From positions 69,553 to 129,879 of the forward strand of contig WGBD01000011.1 in assembly GCA_015494465.1 (NCBI GenBank): 60,327 nucleotides of DNA, read 5' to 3'. A program made the translations under genes and the position numbers. The stretch's first letter is position 1. Each line of letters begins with the position of its first letter. Below the pieces are notes generated by a model. It saw only the letters and a list, made by a program, of their open reading frames with translations. It did no database searches and was not told the DNA's origin. Below are positions 2,692-57,387 of the stretch, piece by piece. The stretch comes from Candidatus Omnitrophota bacterium (GTDB lineage Bacteria > Omnitrophota > Gorgyraeia > S143-82).

Positions 2692-2695
2692 ACCT

Positions 2696-5492: not shown

Positions 5493-5529
5493 GGATGAAT
5501 TATATCACGACAGACAGACGGGTTTAAAG

Positions 5530-5964: not shown

Positions 5965-6004
5965 CACCACCTCCCTCGCTCGAACCACCCTTCGCACGAT
6001 TGGA

Positions 6005-6032
6005 AGTATAATTTAAAAACTTTTAAAATCAA
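6005..6032 (-). promoter_or_regulatory. Sigma70-like promoter (TTGATT-16 nt-TATACT) upstream of the small secreted protein gene
   Basis: On the minus strand, -35 TTGATT is at 6032-6027, the spacer is 16 nt, and -10 TATACT is at 6010-6005. It lies in the 66-nt gap after maf. Confidence 0.45.
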
Positions 6033-6063
6033 CGCGCGAGGGAGACTTTCCAGAAAAAGCGGA

Positions 6064-6669
6064 TTAAAGGGAGGAGACGAACGGATTGTATCCTAATGCG
6101 GTTATCATCAGCTTACGCAGTCTGCTCAAAGGCAAACCCATCACATTGTAAAAGCAGCCGTCTATTCGGGTGATAAATGTCCCGGCAAATCCCTGTATCC
6201 CAAACCCACCTGCCTTATCCAGGACCGCCTCTTTGGAGAAGTAGAACTCTATCTCCTTCTCTCCCAAGGGATCCATGACGACTTTGGTTCGCTCTACATC
6301 GGTCCAGGCCTTACCGCAGTAAGAGAGGGCAATGCCAGTGTAGACATGATGAGGATTTCGAGACAAGAACTTAAGATACTCCTTGGCGGTCTCCAGATCC
6401 TTTGGCTTGCCAAAGAGTCTATCCTTGCAGAAGACCACCGTATCAGCACCTATTACCAGGGCATCGGGATGACTCTTCGCAACCTGCATGGCCTTATCTA
6501 AGGCGTTTTCCACCACCAAGACTCTTACCTGCCGATGGGTACGAGCACGATCCCTTTCTAAGGAATCCTTGGGGACGACGACCTTGAATGGCAGGTCGAA
6601 GTAAGCGAACAGCTCCCTTCGTCTAGGTGAGGCGGAGGCCAATATTATCTCAGGAAGTGCCTTTCGCAT
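6064..6669 (-). CDS. maf: Maf-like nucleoside triphosphate pyrophosphatase (septum formation protein)
   Basis: N-terminal ILASASPRRRELF and C-terminal GAYGIQG-like GGFGIQGFAG motifs. Confidence 0.9.
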   Translation of the reverse strand: MRKALPEIILASASPRRRELFAYFDLPFKVVVPKDSLERDRARTHRQVRVLVVENALDKAMQVAKSHPDALVIGADTVVFCKDRLFGKPKDLETAKEYLKFLSRNPHHVYTGIALSYCGKAWTDVERTKVVMDPLGEKEIEFYFSKEAVLDKAGGFGIQGFAGTFITRIDGCFYNVMGLPLSRLRKLMITALGYNPFVSSL

Positions 6670-7801
6670 CCCTTTTCAGTTCGTCTATCTTACGGTGGAG
6701 AAAAAACTTTTGGCTTGGAGAGAGCTGAGACAAGAACACACCCACCTGGTGCAGCCCGTTATCGAGTGGCTTGTTCCATATCGTCCTGGCGTCTAAGATC
6801 AGCTTATCTCCGTCGGGAAAGACCAGCTCTAATTCGTATGTATCCCCGAGCTTCATCTCAACGGGCGAGAAGAACATTACTCCTGCCACGCACATGTTAC
6901 CCAAGAAGACCTTGTGAGGGGTGCCTTCTTGGTCGTAGACCACCGCGCTGAGCTCGCAGTCGCTAACATCTATCCTCTCCCAGTAGCGCCTATTCCGAAA
7001 GGCCCTGCTCTTGTCCTTCTTGACTATCACCGATGTCCCTCTTCTCTTCTTTGCCTCGTAAAGCGCAGAATCTGCAACCCGAAGGTACTCTCTGACCGTA
7101 GCGTAATCGGGAGAATACTCCACGATCCCAGCGGAAAACCCAAAAGGATCATCCACTCCTTTGATCGCGAACATTCCCTCGTAATCTCGGGCCTTTTCCC
7201 TGAGCTTATCCAACAGCTCTTGAGCGGACTCCCCAGAGGTGTTGGGGAAGACCACCAGGAACTCATCTCCTCCGTATCTAGTAGAGACATCTGCAGGGCG
7301 GAGGTGCCTAAGCAGGAGTTTTCCAAACAACCTCAGGAGCATGTCTGCCTGTACGGGCCCAAGACGCCTGTTGACCTCGTGGAAGTTGTCCAGGTCTATC
7401 ATGGCAATGGTGAGCATGCCCCCGTGCTCTTTCACATCCCGCATGTTCGTCTCCAACACATCCATCACATAAAACATGTTGCCTAGGTCGCGATCGGAGG
7501 CCGAGGACTCTCCCCTTGCTTTCGACCTTCTACGGTAGAAATGGGTAATCGATAAGATCGCAAGGTACCAGAGAAGATATCCGAGTACCACCGGTTTACC
7601 GACATAATGGGGTGCACTGAGGAATGAAAAGAACAAGGCAGTAAAGAATCCCTCCCAGAATGTACGGAACAGGGCAATAGGCAGGAACATCAACGACAAT
7701 GCGTAAGGCAAAAGTACCAACAGCTGAGGGTGGAGCAAGGCCAGATAATACAGGCTGACGCCCACTAAGACCAAGACCAGATAGACAAAGACCAACATCA
7801 T
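6650..7801 (-). CDS. Membrane-anchored diguanylate cyclase with C-terminal PilZ domain
   Basis: About 3 N-terminal hydrophobic helices. The active site is RYGGDEF (aa 175-181), with an I-site RPAD exactly 5 residues upstream. The C-terminal part has RRYWER (RRxxxR) and NMCVAG (D/NxSxxG-like) PilZ motifs. Confidence 0.8.
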   Translation of the reverse strand: MMLVFVYLVLVLVGVSLYYLALLHPQLLVLLPYALSLMFLPIALFRTFWEGFFTALFFSFLSAPHYVGKPVVLGYLLWYLAILSITHFYRRRSKARGESSASDRDLGNMFYVMDVLETNMRDVKEHGGMLTIAMIDLDNFHEVNRRLGPVQADMLLRLFGKLLLRHLRPADVSTRYGGDEFLVVFPNTSGESAQELLDKLREKARDYEGMFAIKGVDDPFGFSAGIVEYSPDYATVREYLRVADSALYEAKKRRGTSVIVKKDKSRAFRNRRYWERIDVSDCELSAVVYDQEGTPHKVFLGNMCVAGVMFFSPVEMKLGDTYELELVFPDGDKLILDARTIWNKPLDNGLHQVGVFLSQLSPSQKFFLHRKIDELKRDAKGTS

Positions 7802-8019
7802 CCCGTTACCTCTATTAACTTTTTCCTGCTCGCCTCTCCCTTAATTATTCTAATACTGCTCTTGGAAACACCCAAAAAGTCCGCCAAGACCGCTCTCAAC
7901 TGGGCATTTGCCTTACCCCGATCCGCGGGGGCGGTGAGCCACACCTCCAACTCCTTTTCCCCTATCCGTTTTACCTCGAGCCTACTAGTTTTGGGGTGAA
8001 CCTTCACCGATATGTACAT
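7798..8019 (-). CDS. DUF167 (YggU) family protein
   Basis: 73 aa; [11 protein letters not shown] ... [33 protein letters not shown] matches the YggU pattern. Confidence 0.75.
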
Positions 8020-8449
8020 GTCTTATCCTTATACCTGCGGACTCGACGAATTCCCTCGCCAACTCGTCTGGGTAGCCCTCCGAGATCACCACCTCCTTGA
8101 TCCCCGCGTTTATCAACATCTTGGTACATATTATACAAGGCTGGGTGGTTACATACATACTCGATCCCTTTAGACTCACCCCGTGCAGGGCAGCCTGTAT
8201 AATCGCGTTCTGTTCCGCATGCAATCCCCGGCAGAGCTCGTGTCTCTGCCCCGAGGGGACCTTTAACTGTTCCCTAAGACACCCTGTCTCTGCACAATGG
8301 GGGATCCCGGAAGGAGCACCGTTGTATCCGGTTGCCAGGATCCTGCGGTCCTTCACCACCACCGCTCCCACCTTCCGACGCAGGCAGGTAGACCGCTCGG
8401 CAACCAAAAAGGCAATACGCATAAAGTACTCGTCCCAATCCGGCCTCAT
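7985..8449 (-). CDS. dCMP deaminase (ComEB-type cytidine/deoxycytidylate deaminase)
   Basis: Zinc motifs HAEQNAI and [14 protein letters not shown]. Confidence 0.9.
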
Positions 8450-9465
8450 AAAAACTCCTTCAGCCTCACTCGGACTAAAACATTATCCAATTCAGCCAAG
8501 ACATCGTCAACGCTAATCGCCCTCAAACACTCAAAACCTTTCTCACAGCGATGGGCAAGGCACCTTTTGCAAGTCGCCTTGTGTATGGATCTGGCATCCA
8601 CATGCAAAGGTCTCCAGCGCGTAGGAGAAAGACCTGGGTCGTTTCGTCCAAATATTACCACCGAAGGGACATCTACCGCAGAGGCGATGTGGACCGGCCC
8701 AGAATCGTTGGACACGAGCACATCGCATCCCGCCAACAGGTAGACCAGATCTCCCAGATCTATCCCAACCTTATTCCTTATACGGGTAAGATACTGTGGA
8801 GGCACCTTCGATAGTATCTGCTCCGCCAAAGGCCTAACATAAGGAGCACCGATCAAGACCACATAATATCCCCTTTCCAGCAACCTTTGAACCAGCTCCG
8901 CATACCTCTCGATAGGCCACATCTTGGATGGACAGCTGGCATGGGGATGAACTGCCACCGTTATCCCCGGAAACAACTTCTCCACCCTACGATCGAGGTA
9001 GAGTTGCGGTCTGGGACTATCCCAACGATCTATACCCAAAAGCGGGAGAAAAAGCATATTGTATTGGCTCTCGTGCATCAACCCCAATGGCTTGGTGTGA
9101 GGCAGAGTCTTGGTCAAAAGGAGTTTACCCCCCTTTACCGCCCAACCTATGCGCAGGGGTATCCCGGACATTGCCAGCAAGAGGTGGAGACGGAGGTTTG
9201 GATTAAGAGCCACTGCCCCATCGTAGCCCCGCCCCCTGATCTGGCGGGCAAAGGAAAGCATCCGCCTCCAGGAGGACTTCAACTCCTTTGCAGGATAGAC
9301 GATAAATCCGTCTAAGCCTTTGACGAACCTTACCAGAGGAACCAAGGTCTCGGAAATAAGAAGATCTATTCTGGCGTCGGGAAAGTTTTTGCGCAGTTCG
9401 GATATAAAAGGGAGGGATAGAACGAAGTCACCTATTCTATCGGTTCGGCAGATCAGGAGATTCAT
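8446..9465 (-). CDS. Glycosyltransferase family 9 (heptosyltransferase-like)
   Basis: N-terminal [10 protein letters not shown] and C-terminal [21 protein letters not shown], typical of GT9. Confidence 0.8.
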
Positions 9466-10306
9466 CTGCCTTCTTCTCCGAAAGCTGTTTTATCTTAGTC
9501 AAAAGCCCGTCTAACGCGGAAAGCGTTTTCTCATCCAACTTGTCCTGATAGATCTTCTTAAATCTCTCGACGGCATCCTGCACCACATCTAACCTACCCG
9601 CACGCAACAAGAGAACTATCTCGGTGCGGAGATTCGCCAACTTTACCGCTACAGGGATCTCCTCATCCGATATAATAGCCTCGAGTTGTTGGATCGCCTT
9701 ATCCCTCTCTCCTCTGGCCAACGCGGTCAAAAACAGGCCCCGCCTGCCCACGAACCTCTTCTTGGGATCTTCGGCGGAGGCCAAATTAGAGTAGAACTGC
9801 TCAGCGCTATCGCAAAGGCCTTCCTGTCCCATCTTCGCCCCTACGAGACAGCGCAGAAAGGGAAACGAGTACCTCACCTGCTCGTTTTCGACCGCCTTCT
9901 CTGCCCGGTTCAATATCCAGAATGCAAGGTCCCAACGATTGAACCTCAGACTCGAGTTAAAGGCGAACCAATACAGCTCCAGCCGTTTTTTTGGATCGTC
10001 GTACTTCAACAGGGACTTGACATCCTCTGACCTGCCCTTTGCCAAGGCCAACAGTATCCTCATCCTTCGCACCGGGATGTCCAGATCCCTCTCCTTAGCA
10101 GTCTGTTCCAGCAACTGCAACACTCCAGACCACTTTTCGTACTCCACATCGGTCATATTCTCGCCGCTGGCTATCACCGGCCGGAGTTTCTGACCGATGT
10201 GGTATATCTCCCTCTCCAAGGCGTAGCGCTTGGAGCACCCAACCGCAGCTAACAAGATCAAGGAGAGCAGGACCCTGCCTGTGTGCTTCTTAGTAGCGGA
10301 CCTCAT
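9437..10306 (-). CDS. Probable lipoprotein, helical-repeat (TPR-like), function unknown
   Basis: Signal sequence with LAAVGC lipobox-like cysteine; the rest is helical and repeat-like. No family recognised. Confidence 0.45.
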   Translation of the reverse strand: MRSATKKHTGRVLLSLILLAAVGCSKRYALEREIYHIGQKLRPVIASGENMTDVEYEKWSGVLQLLEQTAKERDLDIPVRRMRILLALAKGRSEDVKSLLKYDDPKKRLELYWFAFNSSLRFNRWDLAFWILNRAEKAVENEQVRYSFPFLRCLVGAKMGQEGLCDSAEQFYSNLASAEDPKKRFVGRRGLFLTALARGERDKAIQQLEAIISDEEIPVAVKLANLRTEIVLLLRAGRLDVVQDAVERFKKIYQDKLDEKTLSALDGLLTKIKQLSEKKADESPDLPNR

Positions 10307-11063
10307 CTGCCAACCATCCTACCAATACCGCGTGCACGAACACATTGACGACAACAGTCCAGAGATCAAAAACCCCCATGTAGATAAAGACCAGTTCAGG
10401 GTACATCTTAACATAAGTCGAAGCCAGGATCGGGGCCTCTGCGTACAGGATCGGGATAAAAGAGGCAAAGGCCAAGAGCAATAACAAAAAGGCCCTGAAA
10501 AACAGCACCCCCGTCCACCTGAAGCCCTCAAAAAAGCCGATCACCCTTTCCCTCAGCACCATGTAAAACAGAGGGATTACCAATACAGTGTGGATCAAGG
10601 CGTTGAATAGGACCATAACGAGCCACATCCAGGGAAGCGATTTCAGATAGCGAGCGATCAAGGAAGGAAAGGCCTTTTGCCCCAGGAAAAAGATCAACAC
10701 ATACACCAATACATACAAGATCCCCACCCAAAAGCGTACACGAACCCTAGTACCTTTAAGATAATTCCACAGCATGACCACCACAAACAAGGAAGCGATG
10801 GAGAGCAGGATCACATCAAAAAACCAATTCGAAGCCTTGAGCGAGGAATACATCCAAAATATGTGTCCGGGATAATGGAGTGCAACTGGGCCCCAAAAAC
10901 GAGCTATTATAGGCCCGAATACCTTATTAAGGGGCCACTGAACTGCATAGAACAAGAGCAAGGCGTAGAGCCATTTGACGAGGTAAACCAATAAGAAAGG
11001 GACGAATAAAATCGGTCTCTTTATCGGGATGGCTAGAAAAGCAAAGATTCTATCTGCCCGCAT
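10290..11063 (-). CDS. Polytopic inner-membrane protein, function unknown
   Basis: 257 aa with about six long hydrophobic stretches by eye and no motif I can name. It overlaps the downstream lipoprotein gene (9437..10306) by 17 nt and starts 6 nt after the stop of the sugar transferase gene. Confidence 0.5.
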   Translation of the reverse strand: MRADRIFAFLAIPIKRPILFVPFLLVYLVKWLYALLLFYAVQWPLNKVFGPIIARFWGPVALHYPGHIFWMYSSLKASNWFFDVILLSIASLFVVVMLWNYLKGTRVRVRFWVGILYVLVYVLIFFLGQKAFPSLIARYLKSLPWMWLVMVLFNALIHTVLVIPLFYMVLRERVIGFFEGFRWTGVLFFRAFLLLLLAFASFIPILYAEAPILASTYVKMYPELVFIYMGVFDLWTVVVNVFVHAVLVGWLADEVRY

Positions 11064-11068
11064 CTACT

Positions 11069-11731
11069 TCACAGCCCCTTGCTCAAAAGCACATGCTCTA
11101 TTGTATCAAAAAGGATTCGTAAGTCTAACAAAAAACTGGCATTACGAATGTAAAACAGATCGTATCTCAACTTGTGCTTCACATCCTCGATACAAGAATC
11201 GTAGCGATAGCGCACCTGGGCCAGACCGGTAATTCCGGGACGGACCTCCAGTCTCTGCCAGTACCCGGGTATCTTCTCTGCCAGATGACTGGCGATCTCC
11301 GGCCGTTCAGGCCGGGGACCCACCAAGGACATGTCCCCCTTTATCACATTCACCAACTGGGGTAATTCGTCCAAATGGGTTGCTCTAAGAAACCTGCCTA
11401 TCCGCGTCACCCGGGGATCGTTCTGCATCGCCCACACCGCACCGCTGTGCTTTTCTGCGTCCTTCTTCATCGTGCGAAACTTGTATATGGTAAAGACGCG
11501 ACCCCACCGCCCCAGTCTCTTCTGGCGGTATATAATTGGGCCTGGGGAATCCAACCTTACCGCTATCCCTATCAAAACCATCAAAGGCAGAAAGAGCAGG
11601 AAGAGAAAACTTACCACCGCTACATCGAACATCCTCTTTACCGCTGGGTAAATCCCAAAGGGTACACTTAATGTGCTATCCCGTGACACCACACCTACGC
11701 TCATCGATCCACTCCAAAGTCCTCTTTTCAC
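11069..11731 (-). CDS. Small phosphoglycosyl transferase (bacterial sugar transferase family, WbaP C-terminal-domain type)
   Basis: PGPIIYRQKRLG...YKFRTM...DELPQL...GDMSLVGPRP...RPGITGLAQV are the signature blocks of polyprenyl-phosphate sugar-1-phosphate transferases. Confidence 0.9.
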   Translation of the reverse strand: MKRGLWSGSMSVGVVSRDSTLSVPFGIYPAVKRMFDVAVVSFLFLLFLPLMVLIGIAVRLDSPGPIIYRQKRLGRWGRVFTIYKFRTMKKDAEKHSGAVWAMQNDPRVTRIGRFLRATHLDELPQLVNVIKGDMSLVGPRPERPEIASHLAEKIPGYWQRLEVRPGITGLAQVRYRYDSCIEDVKHKLRYDLFYIRNASFLLDLRILFDTIEHVLLSKGL

Positions 11732-14700
11732 AACCCGGCAAAGGAAACCCTCGAGAGGTCAATTCCTCCCTTGGCCTTAACCGTCTGCCCTGCGGTGCGC
11801 CTTAAGATTGAAGAGGCTACCTCGTAGCCTATCGGCCTCCAACCACCGTAGAATGTCAGACCGCCGACCAACTCGCCTCCCAGGCCTTGGGCCATTATCA
11901 CCGATACCAACCAATCCTCCATGAGCCCACTTCCTAAGGCAAGTCTCCTCTCAAAGGTGGCCAGGTGCCACAACCTCTTCATCGCCGAGGCGTCCCGAAA
12001 CTCTGGAGACTCCATCAAGGTCCTCACAGCAGACCTAACCTGATCGGTAAACCCATCCCCATAATACGATTGCATCCTATCCAAGATTCCGTTAAGCTCT
12101 TCTATCTTCCGATAATCCCAAGAGTCATTCAAGACATTAAACCACACGAATTCCACAAAATCCTCCTCGTTCCGGCTAAGCTCCCGCACCGGGAACAACC
12201 ATTCGTTGGCATACCATCCCAGGAAGAGCTTTCCCCTGTGGTAGTACACGCCTATACGGGGCTGGATACCGTATCCCTTCGCACGATAGAAGACCTGGCG
12301 AGAGGCCTTGGCCAATCTCTCAAAACGATCCAAGTCCTTTTTGGTAAACAGGTCTTCGGGCAGAAGGCCACCCTTTACCTTCTTCTGCCAGATCTCGAAG
12401 AAGGACTCCGCCACCCTCACATCCTCTTTGCTGACCTCGAGGATGTCTACCTCGGGGATTTCACCCTCCCACTGCAGGCCGTTTAAAAGCAACAGGGATA
12501 CAAGATACCTGGCGAATACCGGGGACCTCTTCCTTACATGCTCGACAACCCGTCTCCAACTCTTGTAAGAGCGATAATTGTACTCGTCGACATCGTTCAA
12601 GGCCTCCACCAGAAGCAGTTCCCAATCCAATGCCTCCTCCAGCCTTTTCGCCAACTTAGAGGAAACGAAGATCGCTCCTCCCACCACAGAAAGAGCAAGA
12701 AAAGCGGAGATTATAGTTGTCTCATCAACTCCCCTTACAACCAGATAAACCCCCCCTGCCATCAGAAGTAATAAGCCAAGTAGGATATCAAGGTCTATAC
12801 GGCCAGTTGTACGTTCTCCATCACCCTTCTCCTTTCTCTGCTCCTTATCAGTGATGGTATAGCTACCCATCCATAAATTTTTGGCCACCTCTTCCAATCT
12901 CCTATAAAGCTCTTCCCTTTGCTGCATTGTCCCACCCCAAGCACCCAAGTAAGCCGTGCAGCAATATATAGCCATCCTATACTCGTTATCGTTATCGCCA
13001 GGCCTATCAGAAAGCGGAATCTCAACAGAGTTCAAAGGTATACGTATATAAGAGCCATATTGAAATTTTATTTCAAGTACCCCATCCTCCCACGAAATCT
13101 TTCTTACCTTCTTCCCAGCATCTTTCTCTATTTGCTCTATGTCCAATTCCCCATACCCAGGAGAAGTCAATCCATACGCTTCTGCCTCTCGACGAGACAA
13201 AACCTGCTCGAACTCTACTTTTCCTTCCTTCATACTATTACCTTCGATCACATACTCAGCCCTAGCATAGGAAATTGCTACCTTTTTCAATCTTTCATAA
13301 GCTTCCTCCCTATCGTCGAAACTCTCTCCTTTGGCTCCCCACTCTACTTTGACCCTCCAGGAAGTCCAACCCTCTTCCCAACTCTGACTAGCCCTGACAT
13401 GCTGTTTGACTAGCACATAAGAACCATCATTAAATTTTATATATCCATTCCCCAACTCTTTAACTTCTTTACGAGCATCCTGTTCTATCTGTTTTATATC
13501 TTGATCTTTACCAACGCTGGAGCCCCATAGTGAGTCCAGCTCGTCTACATGTGAATAACCATCTAGTTCAAATCTGCCTATCAAGAGCTCTTTCGGGTTA
13601 AAATGCCTCCTCTGCTCCAATTCTTCATTTGCTGCTTTTAATTCCGCCTCAAGTTCCCGCACGGGGTTTACAATCATATTGTTAATCATAACTAAGACCA
13701 ACCCACCACTCATACCAGAAAGTAGCAACGAGACAAGTTTCTTAAGGGCATCCACATCATCTGGTGCGAACTTAACAAATGCAGCTAATTTTCCCATGTG
13801 CAGGAAATCTGCCACATGCCCAATAATAGGAATCAAAAATCCGAACAAATGAGGGAGTAGAAAATAACTTGCCAGTGTCGATACCACAAATCCAAGGAAT
13901 CTAAGTCTAGACAATCGCTTATTAAGCGACCCAAGGTCAACTGCCCCACGATTCTTCCAATCCCCCAAATACCCCCCGTCCAAGAACTTCCGGCCCACTT
14001 CTAACAGTTTGTTCTTGCTCGCCTCGGCGCCTTTCGGATCCTTACCACTGCCTTCCACATAGAGCCTTGCCACCGGCTCGGTCCCGGAGAGCCTTATTGC
14101 AAACCAAGAACCATCTTCAAAGACCACCTTTACCCCGTCCAAAAGCACCACTTCCCTTATCTTCTTACCGGAGTCAGTCTCAATCCTATCCCAATTCACG
14201 AACCCGAATCTGGCCCGCAAATCCCTACGCGGGACCCTGTCTTGTCCTGCGGAGTAGTCCTTGAGGCGGGAGAACAGATCGGAAAGTGTCTTCTTCAGTT
14301 CAGGAGTCAAATTGACATTCTCCCTTTTGTAATCGTAGAACTTGCCAAGCACCTCTTTCTGCACATAAGACACCATCTCGGACATTGCGTTACCGTACTT
14401 CTTGAGAAAGTAGGCCTCCATAAGGACTGCCAAAGTGCTCATCATAATCCCGTCATCCCAGGTCGCGGTCCCCGGCAATCCTACATGGGCGCTCTCCTCC
14501 CCTGCAACCACGAAGTCCTCCGGATCCCAGAACGCCTTCATCCACTTGAATCCAACCTTGGTCTCCTCTGCCCTAGCTCCATAGTGCCGGGCCAGTGCCA
14601 AGGGCAGGTCAGAGGTGGGAACGGTCTTGGCAACTCCACCCTTGCGTCCGATGTCGTTGAAGAAAAACAATACCAGGCCTATGAACTGGTTAGCGGAAAC

Positions 14701-16779
14701 GAAGTTGCCCTTGGAATCTATCACCCCAAACCTGTCCGCATCACCGTCGAGGGCAACCCCCACTGCGGGAGAGGACATCGCCTTCACCTTCTCAGCAAGG
14801 AACCGGGTCCGACTCTGATCAGGCTCGGGATGACTGAGCCCACCGAAGTCCTCGCGGGGATCCAGTTTCAGGTCCTCTCCCTCAAGAACACGATCCTCTC
14901 CGAACATACCTTTTAGGACCTGCAAAATCACCTTACCGCCTGCACCGTGGAGGGCGGTGGGGATTATCTTTATGTCGTTTTCTTTTATATAAGTTATAAG
15001 GTCGCCAATCATCCCTTCGCCGAGACGCCCAGTCAGGGTCTTCTTTACATAATCCACATACCCCCTAATAAGTTCCTCGTGATCTAGGCGGATAGGTTCC
15101 ACCGGCTCAGCCTCGTAAGGCTCCGCAAGATCGTTTATGGACTCGTTCGCCCTACGGGCGAGGAGATCGGTAATCTCCTCTTCCGCGGCACCGCCATCGG
15201 CCGGGGTGACCTTAAACCCGTTGTACTCCGGGGGATTGTGGGAGGCGGTAAAGTTTATCGCAAACAGGGCCTTGTGTTTGGCGACCGCATAGGCCACCTC
15301 CGGGGTGGTAATAGGTTCGTCAAAGTACACGACCGGTATCCCGTAACGGCTGAGAACTTTTACCGCAAGATTCACGAAGTCCTTGCCCATCCTCCGCCCG
15401 TCTCTGGCGATGACCACACCTTCCCTATCACTGCCGTACTTACTCTGGAAGTAGGCCTTGTTCTCCAGGTAAAACCGGGCAAAGCCCTCCAATGCCTTCT
15501 CCATCTTTTTGAGGAATTTCTCTTGCCCTTCTTTATCCTCCGAATCGGGCATAGTGAACCTCCAGCCGGAGGTCCCAAACTTTATGATCTCCTCGGGAGA
15601 AAATGTCTTCTCGTATATCTCGCCTCGGGAATTTATCACCACCGCCTTATCCTTGGCGATAAATACGCCCCTTTCATCCTCCTTAGGGGCCCTAATCCGC
15701 TTGACTTTGCCAGACTTAGTGATAAATATAATCTCGTTACCGAACGGGCCTTTGAGTTTGAGGCCCACCCTACCCGGCGCCTCCGAGACGATTGCCAGAG
15801 GGGCCTGGGGAACAATCCCGGTACTATCTACATCACCGTAGACCCGAAAGGCAACCTGGGCCTTAACCGGTCCCTCACTGAGACCTATCTGGACGAGCTT
15901 GGTATTGGGAGCGGTGCTCAAGGGGGATGGGACCTTCAGCGGGATTACCTTCTCTGGTATCACTGTTCCGTTGAATCCGCCTGCATTCACTACCACAAAA
16001 GAGCTGTCATCTACCGCTCCCCGACGGTACAACTCCGCAAACTCCTTTAAGAAGTCCCTTCGGCTCCAGAAATCCTCACCCCCAGTAGGCAAGGCGTAGT
16101 TATCTACGGTAGCGTCCAAGACGGGAACCTTCCCCCGCAGGTGTTTTTTATACCATACCGCAAGGATCATCGACTGATAGGCCCTTCGAAGATCTGCAAA
16201 CTCCGGGGCGGTGTTCAACTCTTTTTCCAACTCTTCAAGGACACCTTTGAGGTATCCCTCGATCTTCGTCCCACCTTTTCCCTTTATCCTCAACCCTAAA
16301 GAGGCCTTCTCTATCTTGACCTCGTCTCCATCGTAGGTCACCCTTATCTCTTTGGGCTCTATCCACAACCTGAACCTCTGCTCACCCAGGTCCGAGGGCA
16401 TGAGAGACTGGCTGATAAGTTCCATCGCCCGTCTTTTTAACTCCAGGTCCGCAGAGAGCAGGGCCCTTCCCAAGGAGGTATAGGCCAAACCCTTACCCAC
16501 CACCATGGACTCGTCCACCAGGATGTTAAGGTTGACCCACCATTGCTGAGAAGGAACCGCCAAGGCAGTGAGGAAGTAGGAGAGTTCCCGCTTTAAGGCA
16601 TCCTTATCCGTGTTCTCGCTTACACCCAAGACGAATTGCCCATCGCTTATGCGCATACCCAACAAACCCGAGGACGCGGATACCAAAGAGGTGCTAGCCG
16701 AAGTATAAGCCAGTCCCAGTCCTGGCTGATTGAGTACCAAGGCTATTGCCAGAAACATCGAAATCAACCGATTAGACAC
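11728..16779 (-). CDS. Giant (1683 aa) multidomain protein: signal sequence + unknown N-module + alpha-D-phosphohexomutase domain + TM segments + degenerate tandem repeat + TM pair + unknown C-domain
   Basis: The GTG start at 16779 is preceded by AGGAGG, which overlaps the stop of the upstream gene. All PGM/PMM motifs are present: FGTSGWRF (aa 401), Ser loop TASHNPPEYNGFK (aa 511), metal loop DGDADR (aa 678), sugar loop GEESAHVG (aa 760) and phosphate loop RLSGTEPVARLY (aa 896). Hydrophobic stretches lie at aa 959-989, 1015-1037, 1328-1348 and 1355-1374. Confidence 0.85.
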   Translation of the reverse strand: MSNRLISMFLAIALVLNQPGLGLAYTSASTSLVSASSGLLGMRISDGQFVLGVSENTDKDALKRELSYFLTALAVPSQQWWVNLNILVDESMVVGKGLAYTSLGRALLSADLELKRRAMELISQSLMPSDLGEQRFRLWIEPKEIRVTYDGDEVKIEKASLGLRIKGKGGTKIEGYLKGVLEELEKELNTAPEFADLRRAYQSMILAVWYKKHLRGKVPVLDATVDNYALPTGGEDFWSRRDFLKEFAELYRRGAVDDSSFVVVNAGGFNGTVIPEKVIPLKVPSPLSTAPNTKLVQIGLSEGPVKAQVAFRVYGDVDSTGIVPQAPLAIVSEAPGRVGLKLKGPFGNEIIFITKSGKVKRIRAPKEDERGVFIAKDKAVVINSRGEIYEKTFSPEEIIKFGTSGWRFTMPDSEDKEGQEKFLKKMEKALEGFARFYLENKAYFQSKYGSDREGVVIARDGRRMGKDFVNLAVKVLSRYGIPVVYFDEPITTPEVAYAVAKHKALFAINFTASHNPPEYNGFKVTPADGGAAEEEITDLLARRANESINDLAEPYEAEPVEPIRLDHEELIRGYVDYVKKTLTGRLGEGMIGDLITYIKENDIKIIPTALHGAGGKVILQVLKGMFGEDRVLEGEDLKLDPREDFGGLSHPEPDQSRTRFLAEKVKAMSSPAVGVALDGDADRFGVIDSKGNFVSANQFIGLVLFFFNDIGRKGGVAKTVPTSDLPLALARHYGARAEETKVGFKWMKAFWDPEDFVVAGEESAHVGLPGTATWDDGIMMSTLAVLMEAYFLKKYGNAMSEMVSYVQKEVLGKFYDYKRENVNLTPELKKTLSDLFSRLKDYSAGQDRVPRRDLRARFGFVNWDRIETDSGKKIREVVLLDGVKVVFEDGSWFAIRLSGTEPVARLYVEGSGKDPKGAEASKNKLLEVGRKFLDGGYLGDWKNRGAVDLGSLNKRLSRLRFLGFVVSTLASYFLLPHLFGFLIPIIGHVADFLHMGKLAAFVKFAPDDVDALKKLVSLLLSGMSGGLVLVMINNMIVNPVRELEAELKAANEELEQRRHFNPKELLIGRFELDGYSHVDELDSLWGSSVGKDQDIKQIEQDARKEVKELGNGYIKFNDGSYVLVKQHVRASQSWEEGWTSWRVKVEWGAKGESFDDREEAYERLKKVAISYARAEYVIEGNSMKEGKVEFEQVLSRREAEAYGLTSPGYGELDIEQIEKDAGKKVRKISWEDGVLEIKFQYGSYIRIPLNSVEIPLSDRPGDNDNEYRMAIYCCTAYLGAWGGTMQQREELYRRLEEVAKNLWMGSYTITDKEQRKEKGDGERTTGRIDLDILLGLLLLMAGGVYLVVRGVDETTIISAFLALSVVGGAIFVSSKLAKRLEEALDWELLLVEALNDVDEYNYRSYKSWRRVVEHVRKRSPVFARYLVSLLLLNGLQWEGEIPEVDILEVSKEDVRVAESFFEIWQKKVKGGLLPEDLFTKKDLDRFERLAKASRQVFYRAKGYGIQPRIGVYYHRGKLFLGWYANEWLFPVRELSRNEEDFVEFVWFNVLNDSWDYRKIEELNGILDRMQSYYGDGFTDQVRSAVRTLMESPEFRDASAMKRLWHLATFERRLALGSGLMEDWLVSVIMAQGLGGELVGGLTFYGGWRPIGYEVASSILRRTAGQTVKAKGGIDLSRVSFAGL
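12871..13506 (-). repeat. Degenerate protein-level tandem duplication (two units of about 90 aa) inside the giant gene
   Basis: Unit 1 is aa 1092-1178 (DIKQIEQDARKEVKEL..YIKFNDGSYV...REEAYERLKKVA). Unit 2 is aa 1211-1303 (DIEQIEKDAGKKVRKI..LEIKFQYGSYI...REELYRRLEEVA). The similarity is visible in protein only, not as a DNA repeat. Confidence 0.55.
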
Positions 16780-16789
16780 ACCACACCTC

Positions 16790-19700
16790 CTACCTTAAAC
16801 GGACCTGGGAAAGCAACAGACCACCCACCTTCTTTTCACCGGTGGATTCCTCTTTAGATTTACGGATACCGGATGGATGAAGGATCCGCTCAAGCAGCTC
16901 TGGCACCTCTCTACTCTTTCCGCTGTAGAAAGGCCCGAATGTGCGCAATATCTGCTCATCAGACATCCCATCGACTTCTTCCTCTACTTCATCCAAGGTG
17001 GCATAGATCTGCTTGTCTCCTCCCGCTTGAGCCCGCTGTCCCTCTATAAGGCGGTGCAGGGCCTCCCTTATACGGCCCGGATCCAACCTGCCTCCACCAT
17101 CCGGAACGAGCTCCCCACTGGGGCCCACCTCAGGGTAAGGTGCGTCTTTTCCCCTACCGGGCAGGATTATCCCTTGGGCCTCTGCGACCCGGAAGGAAAG
17201 ACCGGTCTTCCTCTCCAAGGTCCTCAGGAGTGTATTTACCCTCTCCAACGAGCCCTTTTCGAGCTTCTTCACATTCAGGAACTTGGCATGGTCGGATCCC
17301 GCCACATAAAGCAGGACAAAGTCCTTGGTGCCCAGCCTGCTCTCCAATTCGTTAACCAGATAAGGCACTATCTCCTCACCAGTCTTGTAGAAGTGCTCAG
17401 GATCAGAAAACGGAAGGTGGGTGAACTCCACCAACTCTGCACCAAAGACGCGGGACAACAGGGCCTCAGTGATGGGTCCCCTGACCAGGGCATCGGAGAG
17501 CATCGGCTTGCGGGGATCACCGTTATCAACGCTCACCACCACTCTATCCACCTGCCCGCTGGCCAATAGGGCAGCGACGACCCATATGTGACCGTTCTGC
17601 CAAGGATCACCCTTCATAGGCAGATAGGCTATCCGCAGACTGGACTTCTTTAAGGGATCTACCTCACCAGTTTCCACCTTCCTGGCTATCTCTTCGAAAG
17701 TGGCCTTCATGTTCTTATAGGACAGTTGCATCTCCTTGAGATCCAAGAGAGTTTGGATGGAGCCTTCCGCAGAGGCAGACAAAGTCAGCTCCTTCAAGAC
17801 CTTCTTCCTGAAGCTCTCTATTGCTGGCAGGCCCTTCTCCGGAGAATCCGCATCTGCGATCTCCTTGACAGCACTGTAGACCTCCTGAGAGATCTCTCCT
17901 CTCAATACCAGGGTATCTATCTCCCCAAGTAGGTCTTTCAACTTTTTCTCAACCGCCTTATCGTTGGAGACCTCTACCCCGAACAGGGCCCTGCTGTTGT
18001 CGTTAAAGAACTTCTCCAGATTCTGCATCCCCTGGCGGACATTGGCTACCACCTCGTCCTTGCTGGTGGGGATGCCCAAAGGCGTTACATCCTGGAAGAA
18101 CCTTTTCTCCACACTTGCCTTGGCCTCCCTCCAGAGAAGGACATTCCGCAACCTTAATAGAGCCTCAACGAGGTCCTCTTCTCCTCTCTCCCTGGCAGAA
18201 TCTATCCTACTAACCAAGCCCTTGCCGATCGCGTCCAAGACATTGCCGTCTATTTCGTCTTTCTCGAACAATTCTTTTACATAAGGCTTAAGAGAATCTA
18301 CGAGTTCAACGGATGGCTTTCCCCCTCTGCGCTCAGCAATCATCTCATCCACCTTCTTCAAGAACACCTCTGCGATCTCCCTGCCCCTATCCTTGCGCTC
18401 TCTCAACTCCTCCAGTCTCTTCTTCTCATCCTCATTAAGTGTCCCCTCTTTCGCGCGCTCCTCCAGGACCTCCAGCCCTGACCAGCGCCAGAAATAGGCC
18501 TTATCTATCATGGCCTTTACGGGTGCCGGGACCAGATGGGGCCCCTTCTGATTCCTCACCCGGGTGGAAGAGGAGGCAATCAACTGTCGTAGGAAGTGCA
18601 CCTGGGGTACTATCCGCCTTAAGATCTCCTTCTCCTCCTCGGGTAGTTCCTCACCGGGCCTCTCCGAGAAGACGAGACCCTTTATCTCTTTGAGGCGATA
18701 ACTCATTATCTTGCCGACCGTATCCAGACGGGCCACCGCTGTTGCCCTGTCTTTGAGCTTACCTACTAAAGAGAAGGTAAAAATACCCTTACTGTCTCTG
18801 ATTATGACCGCGTTGGATATGTTGGAATAAAAGGGATTGTCCTTACTATACTTCTCGACGAACTCGTTCACGAATTCTTTGGATATCTCAAGGGGTTTAT
18901 GGGTAAGGTTTACTATTAAGACATTCTTTCCTATCGCATCCTGCGCAGATATGCCCTTAAACATCACATCCCCGTATATGTGGACCAACTTGGGATCGAG
19001 GCCGAGTTCCCCGGCCCTGTTCTTATAACCACCGTCGGTTGCAACCTCGTCGTCCTTCTTCACCGGAGGCACATCCGATTCCAATACCGCACCCGCATCG
19101 GAGGCGGTGGAATCCTCAAGGGATCCAGACATGGGCTGCAGCTCTTCGCCAACCTTATTGGGCAGGTTGGTAAATACCTCACCTCCACCTTCTACGCTCA
19201 TCAGACCGTCATCCATACGATTAAGGAGGTAGTCGGAGGCAAAGGCACCCAAGAAGCCTACCCTGTTCACCTTAACCGCCCCTACATCCGGCAAAGTGTA
19301 GCTGTCCACCAGACTGGCAAGGCGAGACTGCTTATACCTTTCCTTCAACGCCTCTTTTGCCCATCCTGCAAGGAGCATCGCGTAATAGGCCTTCCTGAGA
19401 GGGGCAAATTCCTGGGAATAGTTTATCGCCCGCTCTATTTCGGGTATCACCGTCTCCTTCAGGATAGACTTTATCTCCTCCTTCAGATCCTCGGGTATAT
19501 CCGCGTCCTCTATGGAGACCTCCACATCTATCCCTGCCTCCTTGATGTACAGTTCGTCCTCGGTGGCATAGACCTCCATCGCCCCCGGCACCATCCAGAA
19601 CCTAGGGGAGAAGCCGTCAACCCCCAAGCGCGCCAGCCTATCCCACAGCCCTTCCCCCGTGGGGCTATCAGGGGACATCAACCGGTTGACCAACAACTTC

Positions 19701-20086
19701 ATCCTGAGGTCGGAATCCAGCATAACGTGTCCCAATTCGGTATATTCTAGCCCGTCTCCTAATAGTTTGGTCTCGGGATTAAAAAGGTATAGATCGGCCC
19801 ACCAGTTCTCGGTAGGAATGGTCAGGGCAGAATAGAAGTAAGAAAGGATCCTTTTTGCCTCCTGTGATTCCGATAATTCTTCTTTACCCACACCAACGCC
19901 GTCTTCCCTTCGCCAGGCAAAGGAAATTCCATTCGCCCCGATCCTCAAACCTACCAACACAAGCGAAGAATCCTCTCTTGCCAGAGAGACCTTGGCACAG
20001 GCAACCCCTAGAGAAACGACCAAGGCAAGGGCTAGACCCAACAAAACGACCAACCCCGTCCCGATTAAGAGTCTACTTCCTCGCAT
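16790..20086 (-). CDS. Giant (1098 aa) protein: signal/anchor sequence + unknown N-module (paralogous to the next gene) + long charged helical region + NadD/cytidylyltransferase-like domain
   Basis: ATG at 20086 is preceded by AAGGAGG. The N-terminal hydrophobic segment is aa 6-30. The C-terminal region has GDPWQNGH (aa 826-833, resembling the GxFxPxHxGH nucleotidyltransferase motif), LLYVAGSDHAKF (resembling the NadD GADS block) and GIILPGRG. Confidence 0.75.
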   Translation of the reverse strand: MRGSRLLIGTGLVVLLGLALALVVSLGVACAKVSLAREDSSLVLVGLRIGANGISFAWRREDGVGVGKEELSESQEAKRILSYFYSALTIPTENWWADLYLFNPETKLLGDGLEYTELGHVMLDSDLRMKLLVNRLMSPDSPTGEGLWDRLARLGVDGFSPRFWMVPGAMEVYATEDELYIKEAGIDVEVSIEDADIPEDLKEEIKSILKETVIPEIERAINYSQEFAPLRKAYYAMLLAGWAKEALKERYKQSRLASLVDSYTLPDVGAVKVNRVGFLGAFASDYLLNRMDDGLMSVEGGGEVFTNLPNKVGEELQPMSGSLEDSTASDAGAVLESDVPPVKKDDEVATDGGYKNRAGELGLDPKLVHIYGDVMFKGISAQDAIGKNVLIVNLTHKPLEISKEFVNEFVEKYSKDNPFYSNISNAVIIRDSKGIFTFSLVGKLKDRATAVARLDTVGKIMSYRLKEIKGLVFSERPGEELPEEEKEILRRIVPQVHFLRQLIASSSTRVRNQKGPHLVPAPVKAMIDKAYFWRWSGLEVLEERAKEGTLNEDEKKRLEELRERKDRGREIAEVFLKKVDEMIAERRGGKPSVELVDSLKPYVKELFEKDEIDGNVLDAIGKGLVSRIDSARERGEEDLVEALLRLRNVLLWREAKASVEKRFFQDVTPLGIPTSKDEVVANVRQGMQNLEKFFNDNSRALFGVEVSNDKAVEKKLKDLLGEIDTLVLRGEISQEVYSAVKEIADADSPEKGLPAIESFRKKVLKELTLSASAEGSIQTLLDLKEMQLSYKNMKATFEEIARKVETGEVDPLKKSSLRIAYLPMKGDPWQNGHIWVVAALLASGQVDRVVVSVDNGDPRKPMLSDALVRGPITEALLSRVFGAELVEFTHLPFSDPEHFYKTGEEIVPYLVNELESRLGTKDFVLLYVAGSDHAKFLNVKKLEKGSLERVNTLLRTLERKTGLSFRVAEAQGIILPGRGKDAPYPEVGPSGELVPDGGGRLDPGRIREALHRLIEGQRAQAGGDKQIYATLDEVEEEVDGMSDEQILRTFGPFYSGKSREVPELLERILHPSGIRKSKEESTGEKKVGGLLLSQVRLR

Positions 20087-20153
20087 AGGACCTCCTTTTT
20101 GCTTAAGAAAAGCTCTCTCGCGTTCCTATCCGAAGCCCGTGGATTGAATTAGA

Positions 20154-20182
20154 ATTATAATACAGGAAGAGGACTTGGTCAA
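20154..20182 (-). promoter_or_regulatory. Near-consensus sigma70 promoter TTGACC-17 nt-TATAAT with AT-rich upstream tract
   Basis: On the minus strand, -35 TTGACC is at 20182-20177, the spacer is 17 nt, and -10 TATAAT is at 20159-20154. An AT-rich, UP-element-like tract (including the palindrome AATAAATATTTATT) lies at 20183-20214. It sits about 68 nt upstream of the ATG at 20086. Confidence 0.6.
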
Positions 20183-20214
20183 CTTCTTAATAAAAGTTTA
20201 ATAAATATTTATTG

Positions 20215-20769
20215 CTATTTGACGCCAGAGACTACCGGTCTAGCCACCAGCCCACTAGCTTTGAGGCGGGTCAGGATCCTGGGAAGGTCCGAGCGAGAGG
20301 TCTTCACTCTCACCTTGAATAGTCCGCCGGAAGGCACCACGATCACCGCATACCCGGGGAGGAGGGATCTTATCTTATCCCTAAATCTCCTTGCATTCCT
20401 TACCGACTTAAAGGCCCCAACCTGGACCAGGACCACATCCGATGCCTCCACCGCCTTTCGGAGACCTGCGGAAGAAGGCAAACGATAGCGGTACTCCAGA
20501 TCCAGTATCCTCTTTATATCTTCCGCCCGCATAGTCTGTCCCAGGTTCGCATAGGCTATCATTAAAAGGTAATAAAGACGGGCAGGGGGTGGTGTCTCTT
20601 TGTACCTCGCCATCAACCTCTCCCCCTTGGAGACGACCCCGGAATAATCCCCCCTCAAGAGAAGGGCAGATAGCTCCCGCTCCTCAGCTAGGGTAAGTCC
20701 TCCTGCCCAGAGCTGGAGCTGAGAGGCGCCCAGGATAATCAAGGACAGGAGAAAACACCACCTTCTCAC
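20215..20769 (-). CDS. SPOR domain protein (secreted, peptidoglycan-binding)
   Basis: It has a signal peptide. The C-terminal part, VLVQVGAFKSVRNARRFRDKIRS...GLFKVRV, has the SPOR-domain pattern. Confidence 0.65.
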   Translation of the reverse strand: MRRWCFLLSLIILGASQLQLWAGGLTLAEERELSALLLRGDYSGVVSKGERLMARYKETPPPARLYYLLMIAYANLGQTMRAEDIKRILDLEYRYRLPSSAGLRKAVEASDVVLVQVGAFKSVRNARRFRDKIRSLLPGYAVIVVPSGGLFKVRVKTSRSDLPRILTRLKASGLVARPVVSGVK

Positions 20770-21725
20770 ACTACCTCCCCTACTACCTCATCCATCACGT
20801 CCTTCATAGTTATTATACCAATGGGTCTGTGCTCGGAATCGTGCACCACTACTATGCTTACCCTAACCGATTGCATCTGATAGAATACCTGCCCTACCGG
20901 GGTCTCCTCGTGGATGAATATGATCGGCCTTATGTACTGCCTCCAATCCTCTTCTTCGGACATGTAAAGCAGATCCAGGATGTGGACAAAGCCCACTACG
21001 GTATGGTCTTCCTTCACTGGATAGCGGGAGAATTCCTTTTCCCTGGCGAGGTGCATAATTCGAGAGAGGTCCCAATCCCTTTCCACGCAGATCACCTTCT
21101 CCATCGGCAGCATGATGTCCCTGGCCTTTTTCGCGGAAAAGTCGAAGATCCTACGGATCAGGGTGCGTTCCTCTCGGTGAAGGGAAGATGCGGTGCTCCC
21201 CTGATACAACAACATCCGCAATTCTTCTCGGGTCACGAATATACCCTTGGACTGATAGAAGTGCCCACCCATCAACCTGAGGATGGCCTCACTAAAGTAG
21301 GTAAACATGATGGCAAAGGGGAAAAACAACACTCTAAAAAACTCAAACACCGGCAACGCTAACGGGACGAGTTTCTCTGCGTAATAACGGAACAAGACCT
21401 TTGGTCCGGCCTCGCCAAAGACGAGCATAACGATCGCGAAGGTCACCGTAATAACCAAGTCGTTATCTATCCCCAGATAGGAAGAACACAAATAAGTAAA
21501 CAAAGAAGACGCGGAGACTACGGACAAATCGTTCCCTATAAGGGTCGTGCTCAGGAATAGGTTCCAGTTCTTCCGCAACCTCCTTATCTGCAAAGCAAGT
21601 CTAGGGTTCTTTCTCCGAAGGACCTGTATCTTTATGGGCGACAAAGAGACGAAGCCCGTCTCCATGCCCGAGAAGAAGGCAGACAGCAACAATGCCAACA
21701 GGAGTAGGAGTAATATCCCCATCAT
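20766..21725 (-). CDS. CNNM/DUF21-CBS membrane protein lacking the CorC_HlyC C-terminal domain
   Basis: The DUF21 N-terminus (FFSGMETGFVSLS) is followed by a CBS pair. The protein ends right after the CBS pair. Confidence 0.75.
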   Translation of the reverse strand: MMGILLLLLLALLLSAFFSGMETGFVSLSPIKIQVLRRKNPRLALQIRRLRKNWNLFLSTTLIGNDLSVVSASSLFTYLCSSYLGIDNDLVITVTFAIVMLVFGEAGPKVLFRYYAEKLVPLALPVFEFFRVLFFPFAIMFTYFSEAILRLMGGHFYQSKGIFVTREELRMLLYQGSTASSLHREERTLIRRIFDFSAKKARDIMLPMEKVICVERDWDLSRIMHLAREKEFSRYPVKEDHTVVGFVHILDLLYMSEEEDWRQYIRPIIFIHEETPVGQVFYQMQSVRVSIVVVHDSEHRPIGIITMKDVMDEVVGEVV

Positions 21726-51551: not shown

Positions 51552-51570
51552 GGAAAATTATTAACGAGTG

Positions 51571-52545: not shown

Positions 52546-52580
52546 TCCCTAAGCTATTTCTTAATGAGAAGGCAACTTTA

Positions 52581-53603: not shown

Positions 53604-53633
53604 ATCTCTTTCCTTAGATATTTAAACGATTCT

Positions 53634-54905: not shown

Positions 54906-55024
54906 ACCATAGACTCCTAATTCATTGGCAGACTCCCATTAAAACTACACCTCAGGTATTCAATCCGTAGCCCACAGAGATTAAAGCTATCTCACCAATT
55001 CTGTATCCTGCATTAATTAAAAGA

Positions 55025-57290: not shown

Positions 57291-57387
57291 TCTAATTGGG
57301 CTCTCTAGTCTGAGCTTTCTTACTACTAGCTACAAGGGAACCAACATGCACAATACACGGAAAGAGGTCTAATCCAATAAAGTTTAC

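Follow-up and report, generated by a model that had tools for sequence, protein, structure and literature searches.

What two long genes of this 60,327-nucleotide (nt) stretch of DNA (the window, from contig WGBD01000011.1 of a Candidatus Omnitrophota bacterium) do together, if anything, is the question raised by the locus. The two genes, G1 and G2, are followed on the same strand by those of a small sugar transferase (a polyprenyl-phosphate glycosyl-phosphotransferase, PGT), a polytopic membrane protein (M4), a lipoprotein candidate (L5) and a GT9 protein, and the original prediction regarded the six as an envelope-glycan or effector system led by two exported giants with sugar-activation domains. 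All six predicted open reading frames (ORFs) lie on the minus strand at the coordinates then given, and both the ORFs and their tightly abutting or overlapping junctions were reproduced. The interpretation placed on them is partly supported: G1 and G2 both belong to a very large family specific to Omnitrophota and are not a dedicated pair. The claim of a glycan system is to be dropped, and the useful result is the definition of the family, whose members combine a signal, a leader of ~300 amino acids (aa), a cargo and a GGIDF tail.

The relationship between both proteins is confined to their N-termini. BLASTP aligned aa 13-312 of G1 with aa 5-278 of G2 (E=1e-30, 33% identity over 310 columns) and nothing beyond, in agreement with their earlier description as paralogues that share an N-terminal module (the N-module, or leader) and then diverge. 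Searches with full-length G1 or G2 retrieved a handful of relatives only, a set that was widened with a profile built from an alignment of the module, and it is this profile that defines the family in the present analysis. An exhaustive HMMER search over 1.84 billion representatives, clustered at 50% identity, gave 7,619 clusters (6,157 of them at E<=1e-30), with G1 scoring 423 bits and G2 377 bits, which establishes both as members. The family, restricted to Omnitrophota, comprises no fewer than 7,600 clusters at 50% identity. Among the 116 proteins found with the same profile in a word-index search, all those with a name are from Candidatus Omnitrophota, and no Pfam domain covered the N-module in any of the 116. 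The module is always placed at residues 1-345 and occurs once per protein, in proteins that range from ~470 to 6,439 aa.

A common architecture emerged from the best 143 representatives of the 7,619 clusters. A hydrophobic segment is present at the N-terminus in 136 of them, and an internal transmembrane (TM)-like segment in only 19. The N-terminal consensus of the family is rich in K and R and contains ILSLLLCFLLIF and EQSGFA/QVAGQLNI. At the opposite end, 113 of the 143 keep a GG[ILVM][DLNVM][LFM] motif 106-143 aa before the C-terminus, where it opens a conserved C-terminal module of ~110-135 aa (GGIDFRxLP...LLLCLADIFKLEEEN..SSPELREALVIVDS). In six others, which constitute the G1 subfamily ending in GGLLLSxVxxR, the motif falls within the last 25 aa. 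It reads GGLLL at aa 1088 of G1 and GGIDL at aa 1671 of G2, and both proteins stop 11-13 residues past it, without the full C-terminal module. The same short ending was observed in P0127-P0129, P0163, P0167 and P0222, and G2 and its orthologue P0007 finish in GGIDLxRVS.

What lies between leader and tail is highly variable. A Pfam analysis of 38 family members detected GPI (four times), guanylate kinase (three), HD (two), PGK, PPDK, GH94, DnaJ, PGM, HEAT and TPR domains, a further match to the family (P0038) has an Enolase_N domain, and P0143 carries a J domain after its N-module. The combination of an N-module with PGM found in G2 recurs in P0008 and at locus L009. In this last case (L009 10001-16839, GCA_016208765.1), a 456-aa ORF with the N-module runs into the start of a 1842-aa ORF that has PGM domains, directly after the operon of an F-type ATP synthase, and the two ORFs look like parts of a single G2-like gene disrupted by a frameshift.

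Neither the leader nor the tail is covered by any Pfam or NCBIfam model. Modelled alone from 62 sequences, the N-module gave a confident prediction (pLDDT 83.6, pTM 0.80) with two long beta-hairpins and long helices, and the comparison of this model with the PDB produced no match (best E=0.15, probability <=0.18). This modelling and Foldseek comparison, proposed with the original prediction, bear out its view that the N-module stands outside the characterised families. The sole notable match in BFVD was a "J domain-containing protein" of Tupanvirus soda lake (A0A6N1NXY0_2; probability 0.94, TMq 0.36, 279 columns), which, on the strength of the predicted structures, may be a homologue transferred to a giant virus. 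A ClyA/Mak-type toxin was also considered for the leader and rejected, as Mak matches reached a probability of only 0.01-0.03, and targeting peptides of encapsulins or microcompartments, donor-strand polymerisation and exosortase-type sorting were discarded for leader and tail with no supporting result. Neither module was found described in a literature search that included the motifs SGFAQ, GGIDF and GGIDL and fusions of glycolytic enzymes in Omnitrophota.

A close-up view of the module borders shows invariant Gly-Gly pairs throughout the family, one closing the N-module (..SGG) and another opening the tail (GGIDF or GGLLL). They are located at aa 300-302 and 1088-1089 in G1, and at aa 268-269 (by BLASTP alignment to G1) and 1671-1672 in G2. 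C39 peptidases cut at double-glycine sites, and long proteins of Omnitrophota have been reported to contain C39 domains. It is possible that the Gly-Gly pairs of leader and tail are processing sites.

As for the cargo of the two proteins, the sequence of G2 embeds what reads as a complete phosphohexomutase with intact catalytic motifs, as had been anticipated. The PGM_PMM domains I-IV were all detected by Pfam above gathering scores (E 8.6e-25, 2.7e-13, 4.8e-14 and 1.8e-9), and the active-site motifs TASHNP (position 511), DGDADR (678), GEESAH (760) and SGTEP (898) align to solved mutases (PDB 1tuo). No NCBIfam equivalog model comes near its cut-off on the mutase domain, the best being Arch_GlmM with 174.5 bits versus 439. 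G2 therefore shares four domains and four motifs with the alpha-D-phosphohexomutase superfamily (PGM/PMM/GlmM; PDB 1tuo and 1wqa), whereas its domain, in contrast with ordinary phosphohexomutases, is embedded in 1683 aa behind a signal and a leader. The segment that follows it is a lineage-specific insert of lower GC content (0.435 versus 0.53 elsewhere), which is kept in P0006 and missing from the 62%-identical orthologue P0007; its two domain copies of ~110 aa carry the sequence IEQIEKDAxKKV... A low-threshold Pfam scan of the C-terminal part of G2 detected nothing.

The case of G1 is different in that no Pfam domain was matched anywhere in the protein, and a low-threshold scan of its middle part also gave nothing. 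For aa 815-978, there was no Pfam or NCBIfam model and no phmmer match in the PDB, CTP_transf_like (PF01467) being absent even at E<=5. The NadD model of NCBIfam aligned to the wrong region (aa 471-534, E=0.066, 12.8 bits versus a cut-off of 167), and a PDB search with a profile of 10 sequences of the nucleotidyltransferase (NTase)-like domain yielded just a weak match to the PPAT structure 1vlh (E=0.07). An AlphaFold model of G1 was then available from an alignment of those 10 sequences, with a mean pLDDT of 74.9 that rises to ~88 over aa 815-978. Its only high-probability Foldseek matches in the PDB were six NadD structures (4ymi, 4ybr, 5vir, 1kaq, 2h29 and 1yum; probability 0.96-0.99), led by 4ymi_B with a probability of 0.99 and a root-mean-square deviation of 3.2 Å over 118 columns. 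Five of the six entries deviated by 3.2-4.1 Å over ~115 columns and 1kaq_A by 7.0 Å over 136 columns. In the comparison of the whole G1 model, neither the N-module nor the mid domain nor the helical region had a credible match. The modelled domain is accordingly described as having a NadD-type nucleotidyltransferase fold, an assignment that comes from structure comparison after sequence methods had failed.

The (H/T)xGH signature of these enzymes reads Q-N-G-H in G1 (aa 830-833), and for this reason the domain is not filed as a NadD. The second His (H833) is invariant across the 10 sequences, and the first one, replaced by Gln in G1, is present in P0002, P0004, P0128, P0163 and P0167. Residues H833, R869, D932 and H933 are invariant or nearly so in these 10 divergent sequences, and no second motif of the ISxTxxR type was recognised in the domain of G1. 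In this regard, the earlier claim of a NadD/cytidylyltransferase-like domain holds for the fold (Foldseek 0.99) and fails for the HxGH motif and for profile membership. With the NadD/HIGH nucleotidyltransferases, including PPAT, TagD and domain II of HldE, G1 shares the fold and the second His, but it differs in the ~800 aa that precede the domain and in the Gln at the place of the first His. The closest GTDB match to the domain comes from an Omnitrophota metagenome-assembled genome (MAG), and a scan of genome contigs with a 5-sequence profile gave two loci only, one of them tiny and the other inside an ORF of >5,174 aa. This second locus (L007 8-15532, in a MAG labelled Elusimicrobia bacterium RIFCSPLOWO2_01_FULL_54_10) holds a G1-type NTase-like domain in an ORF that extends past the locus start, which suggests a mobile cargo module used in much longer proteins too.

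Where these domains reside was approached through the signal peptides, judged by eye and hydropathy. G2 displays an n-h-c layout composed of MSNR, LISMFLAIALVL and NQPGLGLA/YT, and hydropathy detects four more hydrophobic segments further along the chain, which pair up into two hairpins (aa 961-1037 and 1328-1377). With such an even number, the N-module, the mutase and the C-domain would all remain on the same side of the membrane. Following the positive-inside rule, the bulk of G1 and G2 is predicted to be translocated, and we infer from their sequences that both are exported by Sec, in keeping with the exported giants of the original prediction. Monotopic PGTs, like GT9 heptosyltransferases, work at the membrane's cytoplasmic side on nucleotide sugars, so that G1 and G2, if exported as predicted, could not supply the PGT and the GT9 protein. 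A ROK kinase, PFK and iPGM that lack any leader are also encoded in the window, indicating that this organism does not make its ordinary enzymes of sugar metabolism by way of the leader.

The grouping of the six genes was originally deduced from their spacing. G1 and G2 are separated by 10 nt, and the proposed Shine-Dalgarno sequence of G2 is indeed found over the end of G1, with AGGAGG (16791..16786) overlapping the stop TAG (16792..16790) 6 nt ahead of the GTG start. G2 and the PGT gene overlap by 4 nt (GTGA), a 5-nt gap follows between PGT and M4, and then come overlaps of 17 nt (M4/L5) and 29 nt (L5/GT9). The overlap run passes GT9 and goes on through a deaminase (4-nt overlap), a 73-aa DUF167-like ORF, a GGDEF protein and Maf, so that the run of abutting or overlapping genes starting at G1 amounts to 11 genes, from 20086 down to 6064. 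Upstream of G1, the TTGACC-17-TATAAT sequence (20182..20154) has 11 of 12 matches and is the best of the 15 kb scanned, and a AAAGGAGG ribosome-binding site lies between it and the G1 ATG. Taken as a class, promoter-like sites show no enrichment (6 observed versus 10.8 expected). Of the coupled unit postulated behind this promoter, the promoter-like site and the tight packing stand, and its end at GT9 does not. Across the window, all 53 of the 53 called genes are on the minus strand with a median intergenic distance of 4.5 nt, junctions of <=10 nt account for 30 of 52 and overlaps for 23 of 52; GC skew is negative in each 2-kb bin. The window is an extremely streamlined and strand-biased stretch of genome. 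Given that tight packing is general in it and that the run reaches Maf, gene spacing says little about function here, and the argument for one six-gene transcription unit applies equally to five more genes. Overlap being the norm of the window and the N-module a phylum-wide leader, the notion of a distinct six-gene system is not sustained.

The identity of the four neighbours after G2 is as had been proposed, supported by Pfam, hydropathy and a conserved Cys24. The PGT matches Bac_transf (E=3.5e-70), and the GT9 protein its Pfam family (E=5.5e-31), with 124.6 bits against TIGR02195, slightly below the cut-off of 134.6. M4 and L5 have no Pfam match, also in low-threshold scans. The closest relative with genomic context, locus L001 (GCA_053988955.1), has housekeeping proteins 52-79% identical to those of the window, and its orthologues of M4 and L5 are 38% and 34% identical, L5 keeping Cys24. 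The gene order of L001 (G1 orthologue, PGT, M4, L5, GT9, deaminase, DUF167, GGDEF, Maf) matches that of the window minus G2, and the shared order continues through genes unrelated to glycans. In L001 (region 1770-8736), the G1 orthologue sits just downstream of bamA, skp, lpxD, lpxC-fabZ, lpxA, lpxI and tyrS; SPOR, CNNM and PFK genes are found upstream of G1 in the window, and it is exactly at the 5' side of G1 that synteny between both loci is lost.

Beyond this relative, the association disappears, and a conserved linkage is absent. The pair had been expected beside PGT/GT9 genes in relatives; L001 has the G1 orthologue only, and six further N-module contexts have none. No PGT or GT9 gene was found in contexts L002-L005, L008, L009, L090 and L091. 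The N-module gene lies beside tRNA synthetases in L002, where the 1081-aa gene upstream encodes an unrelated polytopic protein, and it adjoins recG in L004, transposases and acetate kinase in L008, the ATP synthase operon in L009 and unrelated genes in L090 and L091. A metagenome scan with a PGT alignment gave 80 loci with PGTs <=60% identical, none of them with a homologue of the N-module, M4 or L5; it found no closer relatives and is uninformative for close ones.

Altogether, we regard it as probable that G1 and G2 are members of this family that are exported and act outside the cytoplasm or in a host, an explanation firm as to the family and tentative as to localisation and function. The family architecture is that of a predicted Sec-type signal, a leader of ~300 aa without a known fold, a variable cargo of cytoplasmic-type enzymes and a GG[I/L][D/L][L/F] tail. 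After export by Sec, G1 would be soluble or anchored by its N-terminus and G2 would be held in the inner membrane by its two helical hairpins, with the phosphohexomutase and the NadD-fold domain facing the periplasm, the cell surface or the host cell and not the cytoplasm. The shared leader and tail may serve as common handles by which the cargo is exported, attached or delivered; in these ultra-small, host-dependent bacteria, the cargo would most plausibly act on host-derived metabolites or inside the host. The adjacency to PGT-M4-L5-GT9 would then be gene order inherited in one lineage with a tightly packed genome. The originally envisaged alternative of an exported effector pair is compatible with this evidence. 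A more ambitious version, possible though clearly short of probable, is that leader and tail are the handles of an Omnitrophota-wide route that exports, processes or delivers hundreds of cytoplasmic-type enzymes and co-chaperone domains, among them PGM, PGI, PGK, PPDK, guanylate kinase, J-domain and NadD-like ones, plausibly into a host; G1 and G2 would count as minimal members with a truncated tail, and the Gly-Gly pairs may be processing sites. Several points weigh against an exported location and a function apart from the glycan genes. The hydrophobic segment of G1 is long (~23 residues) and could be an anchor, and the signal calls rest on inspection by eye and hydropathy. Extracytoplasmic action of the cargo is biochemically awkward, because PGM, the NadD-like domain, PGK, guanylate kinase, PPDK and the J domain need phosphorylated substrates, ATP or Hsp70, none of which a periplasm is known to supply. 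Finally, the G1 orthologue adjoins the same PGT-GT9 block in the sole close relative, and a lineage-specific envelope role is possible since the L001 block follows an outer-membrane and lipid A cluster.

If this last point were taken further, G1 and G2 could be a membrane-associated sugar-activation pair, in which the mutase yields a sugar 1-phosphate and an NTase of the NadD/HldC type converts it into the NDP-sugar that feeds PGT and GT9 for an envelope glycan, M4 and L5 taking part in export or assembly. The complete mutase of G2 with its intact motifs would fit such a pathway, as would the fold class of G1, since the cytidylyltransferase superfamily includes heptose-1-phosphate adenylyltransferase; the abutting genes behind one strong promoter-like site and the position of the L001 block, downstream of lpxD/lpxC-fabZ/lpxA/lpxI and bamA, point in the same direction. 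We nevertheless find this explanation unlikely: the L001 block lacks G2, distant genes of the G1 type (P0004) and the G2 type (P0008, L009) adjoin tRNA synthetases, recG or the ATP synthase operon, the Sec-type signals predicted on both giants conflict with a PGT and a GT9 protein at the cytoplasmic face, the HxGH of G1 is Q-N-G-H with no CTP_transf_like match, the same leader precedes unrelated cargo in thousands of proteins, the overlap run continues into deaminase, DUF167, GGDEF and Maf genes, and a separate Wzx-type cluster at 50-60 kb has its own PGT and GT9. The scaffolded sugar-activation machine of the original prediction, with its parts predicted on opposite sides of the membrane and its leader carrying assorted cargo, is not upheld. 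In another alternative, the N-terminal segment would be an inner-membrane tether and not an export signal, and the proteins would face the cytoplasm, organised by leader and tail into a membrane-bound metabolon. The cargo is overwhelmingly of cytoplasmic type and dependent on ATP or sugar phosphates, the hydrophobic stretch of G1 is of anchor length, an overlooked TM helix could invert the localisation (West-Roberts et al., 10.1101/2023.11.21.568195), and a 2026 preprint reads TM-only long proteins as cytoplasm-facing (10.64898/2026.06.07.730766). This arrangement is doubtful, however, given that the family consensus (a positive N-terminus, a core of 12-14 residues and a small-x-small GFA/Q) has the layout of a cleaved Sec signal, that the even count of later segments in G2 keeps its large domains on the side of the N-module, that internal TM-like segments are scarce (19 of 143) and that leaderless glycolytic enzymes coexist in the window. 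It is also conceivable that the enzyme-derived domains are non-catalytic binding modules of surface adhesins or structural coat proteins, as proposed for giant Omnitrophota ORFs (PMC10066038); the degenerate HxGH of G1, and a protein dominated by large helical regions and regions without family match, would agree with this. Such a role is highly unlikely in view of the four intact mutase motifs of G2, which align to solved enzymes, and of the conservation of H833, R869, D932 and H933 in the domain of G1.

The preferred reading, that of exported family members with enzyme cargo, has precedents in the same phylum. Enzyme domains such as TIM, PGI, FBPase, PGM/PMM and aldolase were described in Omnitrophota giant proteins by West-Roberts et al. 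(bioRxiv 10.1101/2023.11.21.568195), who predicted them to be extracellular and cautioned about the localisation. Among 916 long proteins, the 2026 preprint (10.64898/2026.06.07.730766) detected PGM Pfams in 88, 65 and 64 and a signal peptide plus TM helices in 39%, and listed effector, CAZyme and inner-membrane readings. These giants ("Archaeovorins" and related) resemble G1 and G2 in phylum, in the signal peptide with or without TM helices and in Pfam-blank regions. Sugar-phosphate enzymes predicted to be extracytoplasmic, PGM/PMM and PGI among them, are embedded in these giants as well as in the N-module family. The giants measure 10-147 thousand aa, in contrast with 1098 and 1683 aa, and Pfam found no dockerin, TSP3 or C39 domains in G1 or G2, which are therefore not members of the Archaeovorin type. 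Leader and GG-tail were not found described in the papers on Omnitrophota giant proteins (10.1101/2023.11.21.568195, 10.64898/2026.06.07.730766 and PMC10066038). Enzyme domains in long exported proteins of the phylum had thus already been reported, and the present analysis adds a compact definition of the leader/tail family. The apparently extracellular glycolytic enzymes of these giants are treated as a puzzle in published work, which becomes experimentally easier with leader and tail on proteins of 0.5-2 thousand aa. The host-dependent lifestyle of Omnitrophota was described by Seymour et al. (PMC10066038), and the location of leader-bearing enzymes bears on how ultra-small, host-dependent bacteria interact with their hosts.

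Outside the phylum, proteins with the C-terminal domain of the type IX secretion system (T9SS) and MARTX toxins have conserved end modules and interchangeable enzymatic cargo. The N-module family would resemble them by analogy in its conserved ends, variable cargo and many paralogues per genome; no relationship of sequence or fold to either was found, and no components of T9SS or of type I secretion turned up here, so the likeness is one of analogy only. With loci for lipopolysaccharide core or of the Wzx/Wzy type, the six-gene unit shares a small PGT, a GT9 heptosyltransferase-like gene, a membrane protein and a lipoprotein, but it has no flippase (M4 being polytopic without family match), polymerase, ligase or leaderless genes of NDP-sugar synthesis. 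The coordinates of the features are collected in Table 1.

Table 1. Position of the genes, predicted protein regions and promoter-like site in the window.
Feature	Coordinates	Strand	Basis or remark
Sigma-70-like promoter match TTGACC-17-TATAAT	20154..20182	-	In the 128-nt gap upstream of G1
G1, 1098 aa	16790..20086	-	N-module family, subfamily ending GGLLLSxVxxR
G1 aa 1-35, predicted Sec signal or signal-anchor	19982..20086	-	MRGSR, ~23 hydrophobic residues, ACA/K
G1 N-module, aa 36-312	19151..19981	-	Two long beta-hairpins and long helices (model)
G1 aa 355-530, alpha/beta domain	18497..19024	-	SSST.VR motif; conserved in G1 subfamily
G1 aa 533-805, all-helical region	17672..18490	-	Length varies among orthologues
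G1 aa 815-978, predicted NadD/cytidylyltransferase-fold domain	17153..17644	-	AlphaFold model and Foldseek; AGSDH conserved
G1 C-terminal tail	16793..16834	-	GGLLLSQVRLR motif
G2, 1683 aa	11728..16779	-	N-module family with embedded phosphohexomutase
G2 aa 1-24, predicted signal of the classical cleavable type	16708..16779	-	LISMFLAIALVL...GLA/YT
G2 N-module, aa 25-280	15940..16707	-	BLASTP to G1, family profile
G2 aa 400-913, phosphohexomutase domains I-IV	14041..15582	-	Pfam and motifs
G2 aa 961-1377, lineage-specific insert	12649..13899	-	Two hydrophobic hairpins flanking two ~110-aa domain copies
G2 aa 1378-1668, C-domain	11776..12648	-	43% identical to the C-terminus of P0007
G2 C-terminal tail	11731..11775	-	GGIDLSRVSFAGL
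PGT, small monotopic polyprenyl-phosphate glycosyl-phosphotransferase	11069..11731	-	Bac_transf; neighbour by synteny
M4, polytopic membrane protein, 257 aa	10290..11063	-	Hydropathy; no family match
L5, helical lipoprotein candidate, 289 aa	9437..10306	-	Signal, then Cys24; no family match
GT9, heptosyltransferase-like protein	8446..9465	-	Pfam GT9; TIGR02195 below cut-off

Further along the window, a polysaccharide cluster of the canonical Wzx type, which has its own PGT and a second GT9, occupies 50130-60131 and reaches the window end. It encodes a WbaP-like PGT (473 aa), a GT2, the second GT9, a 423-aa protein without assigned family, a GT4/GT1, a GT2, a methyltransferase, a hexapeptide acyltransferase and a Polysacc_synt flippase. 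The GC content drops over it from ~0.53 to 0.34-0.36, and the region is probably a horizontally acquired island for O-antigen or exopolysaccharide. Closer to the giants, the 73-aa DUF167/YggU-like ORF at 7798..8019 (minus strand), previously unlisted, lies between the deaminase and GGDEF genes and overlaps both; its counterpart in L001 is a 75-aa PF02594 gene. On the other side, two tandem CNNM/CBS transporter paralogues of the CorC type, with a 4-nt overlap, are encoded at 20766-22981, directly upstream of the SPOR-domain gene ahead of G1.

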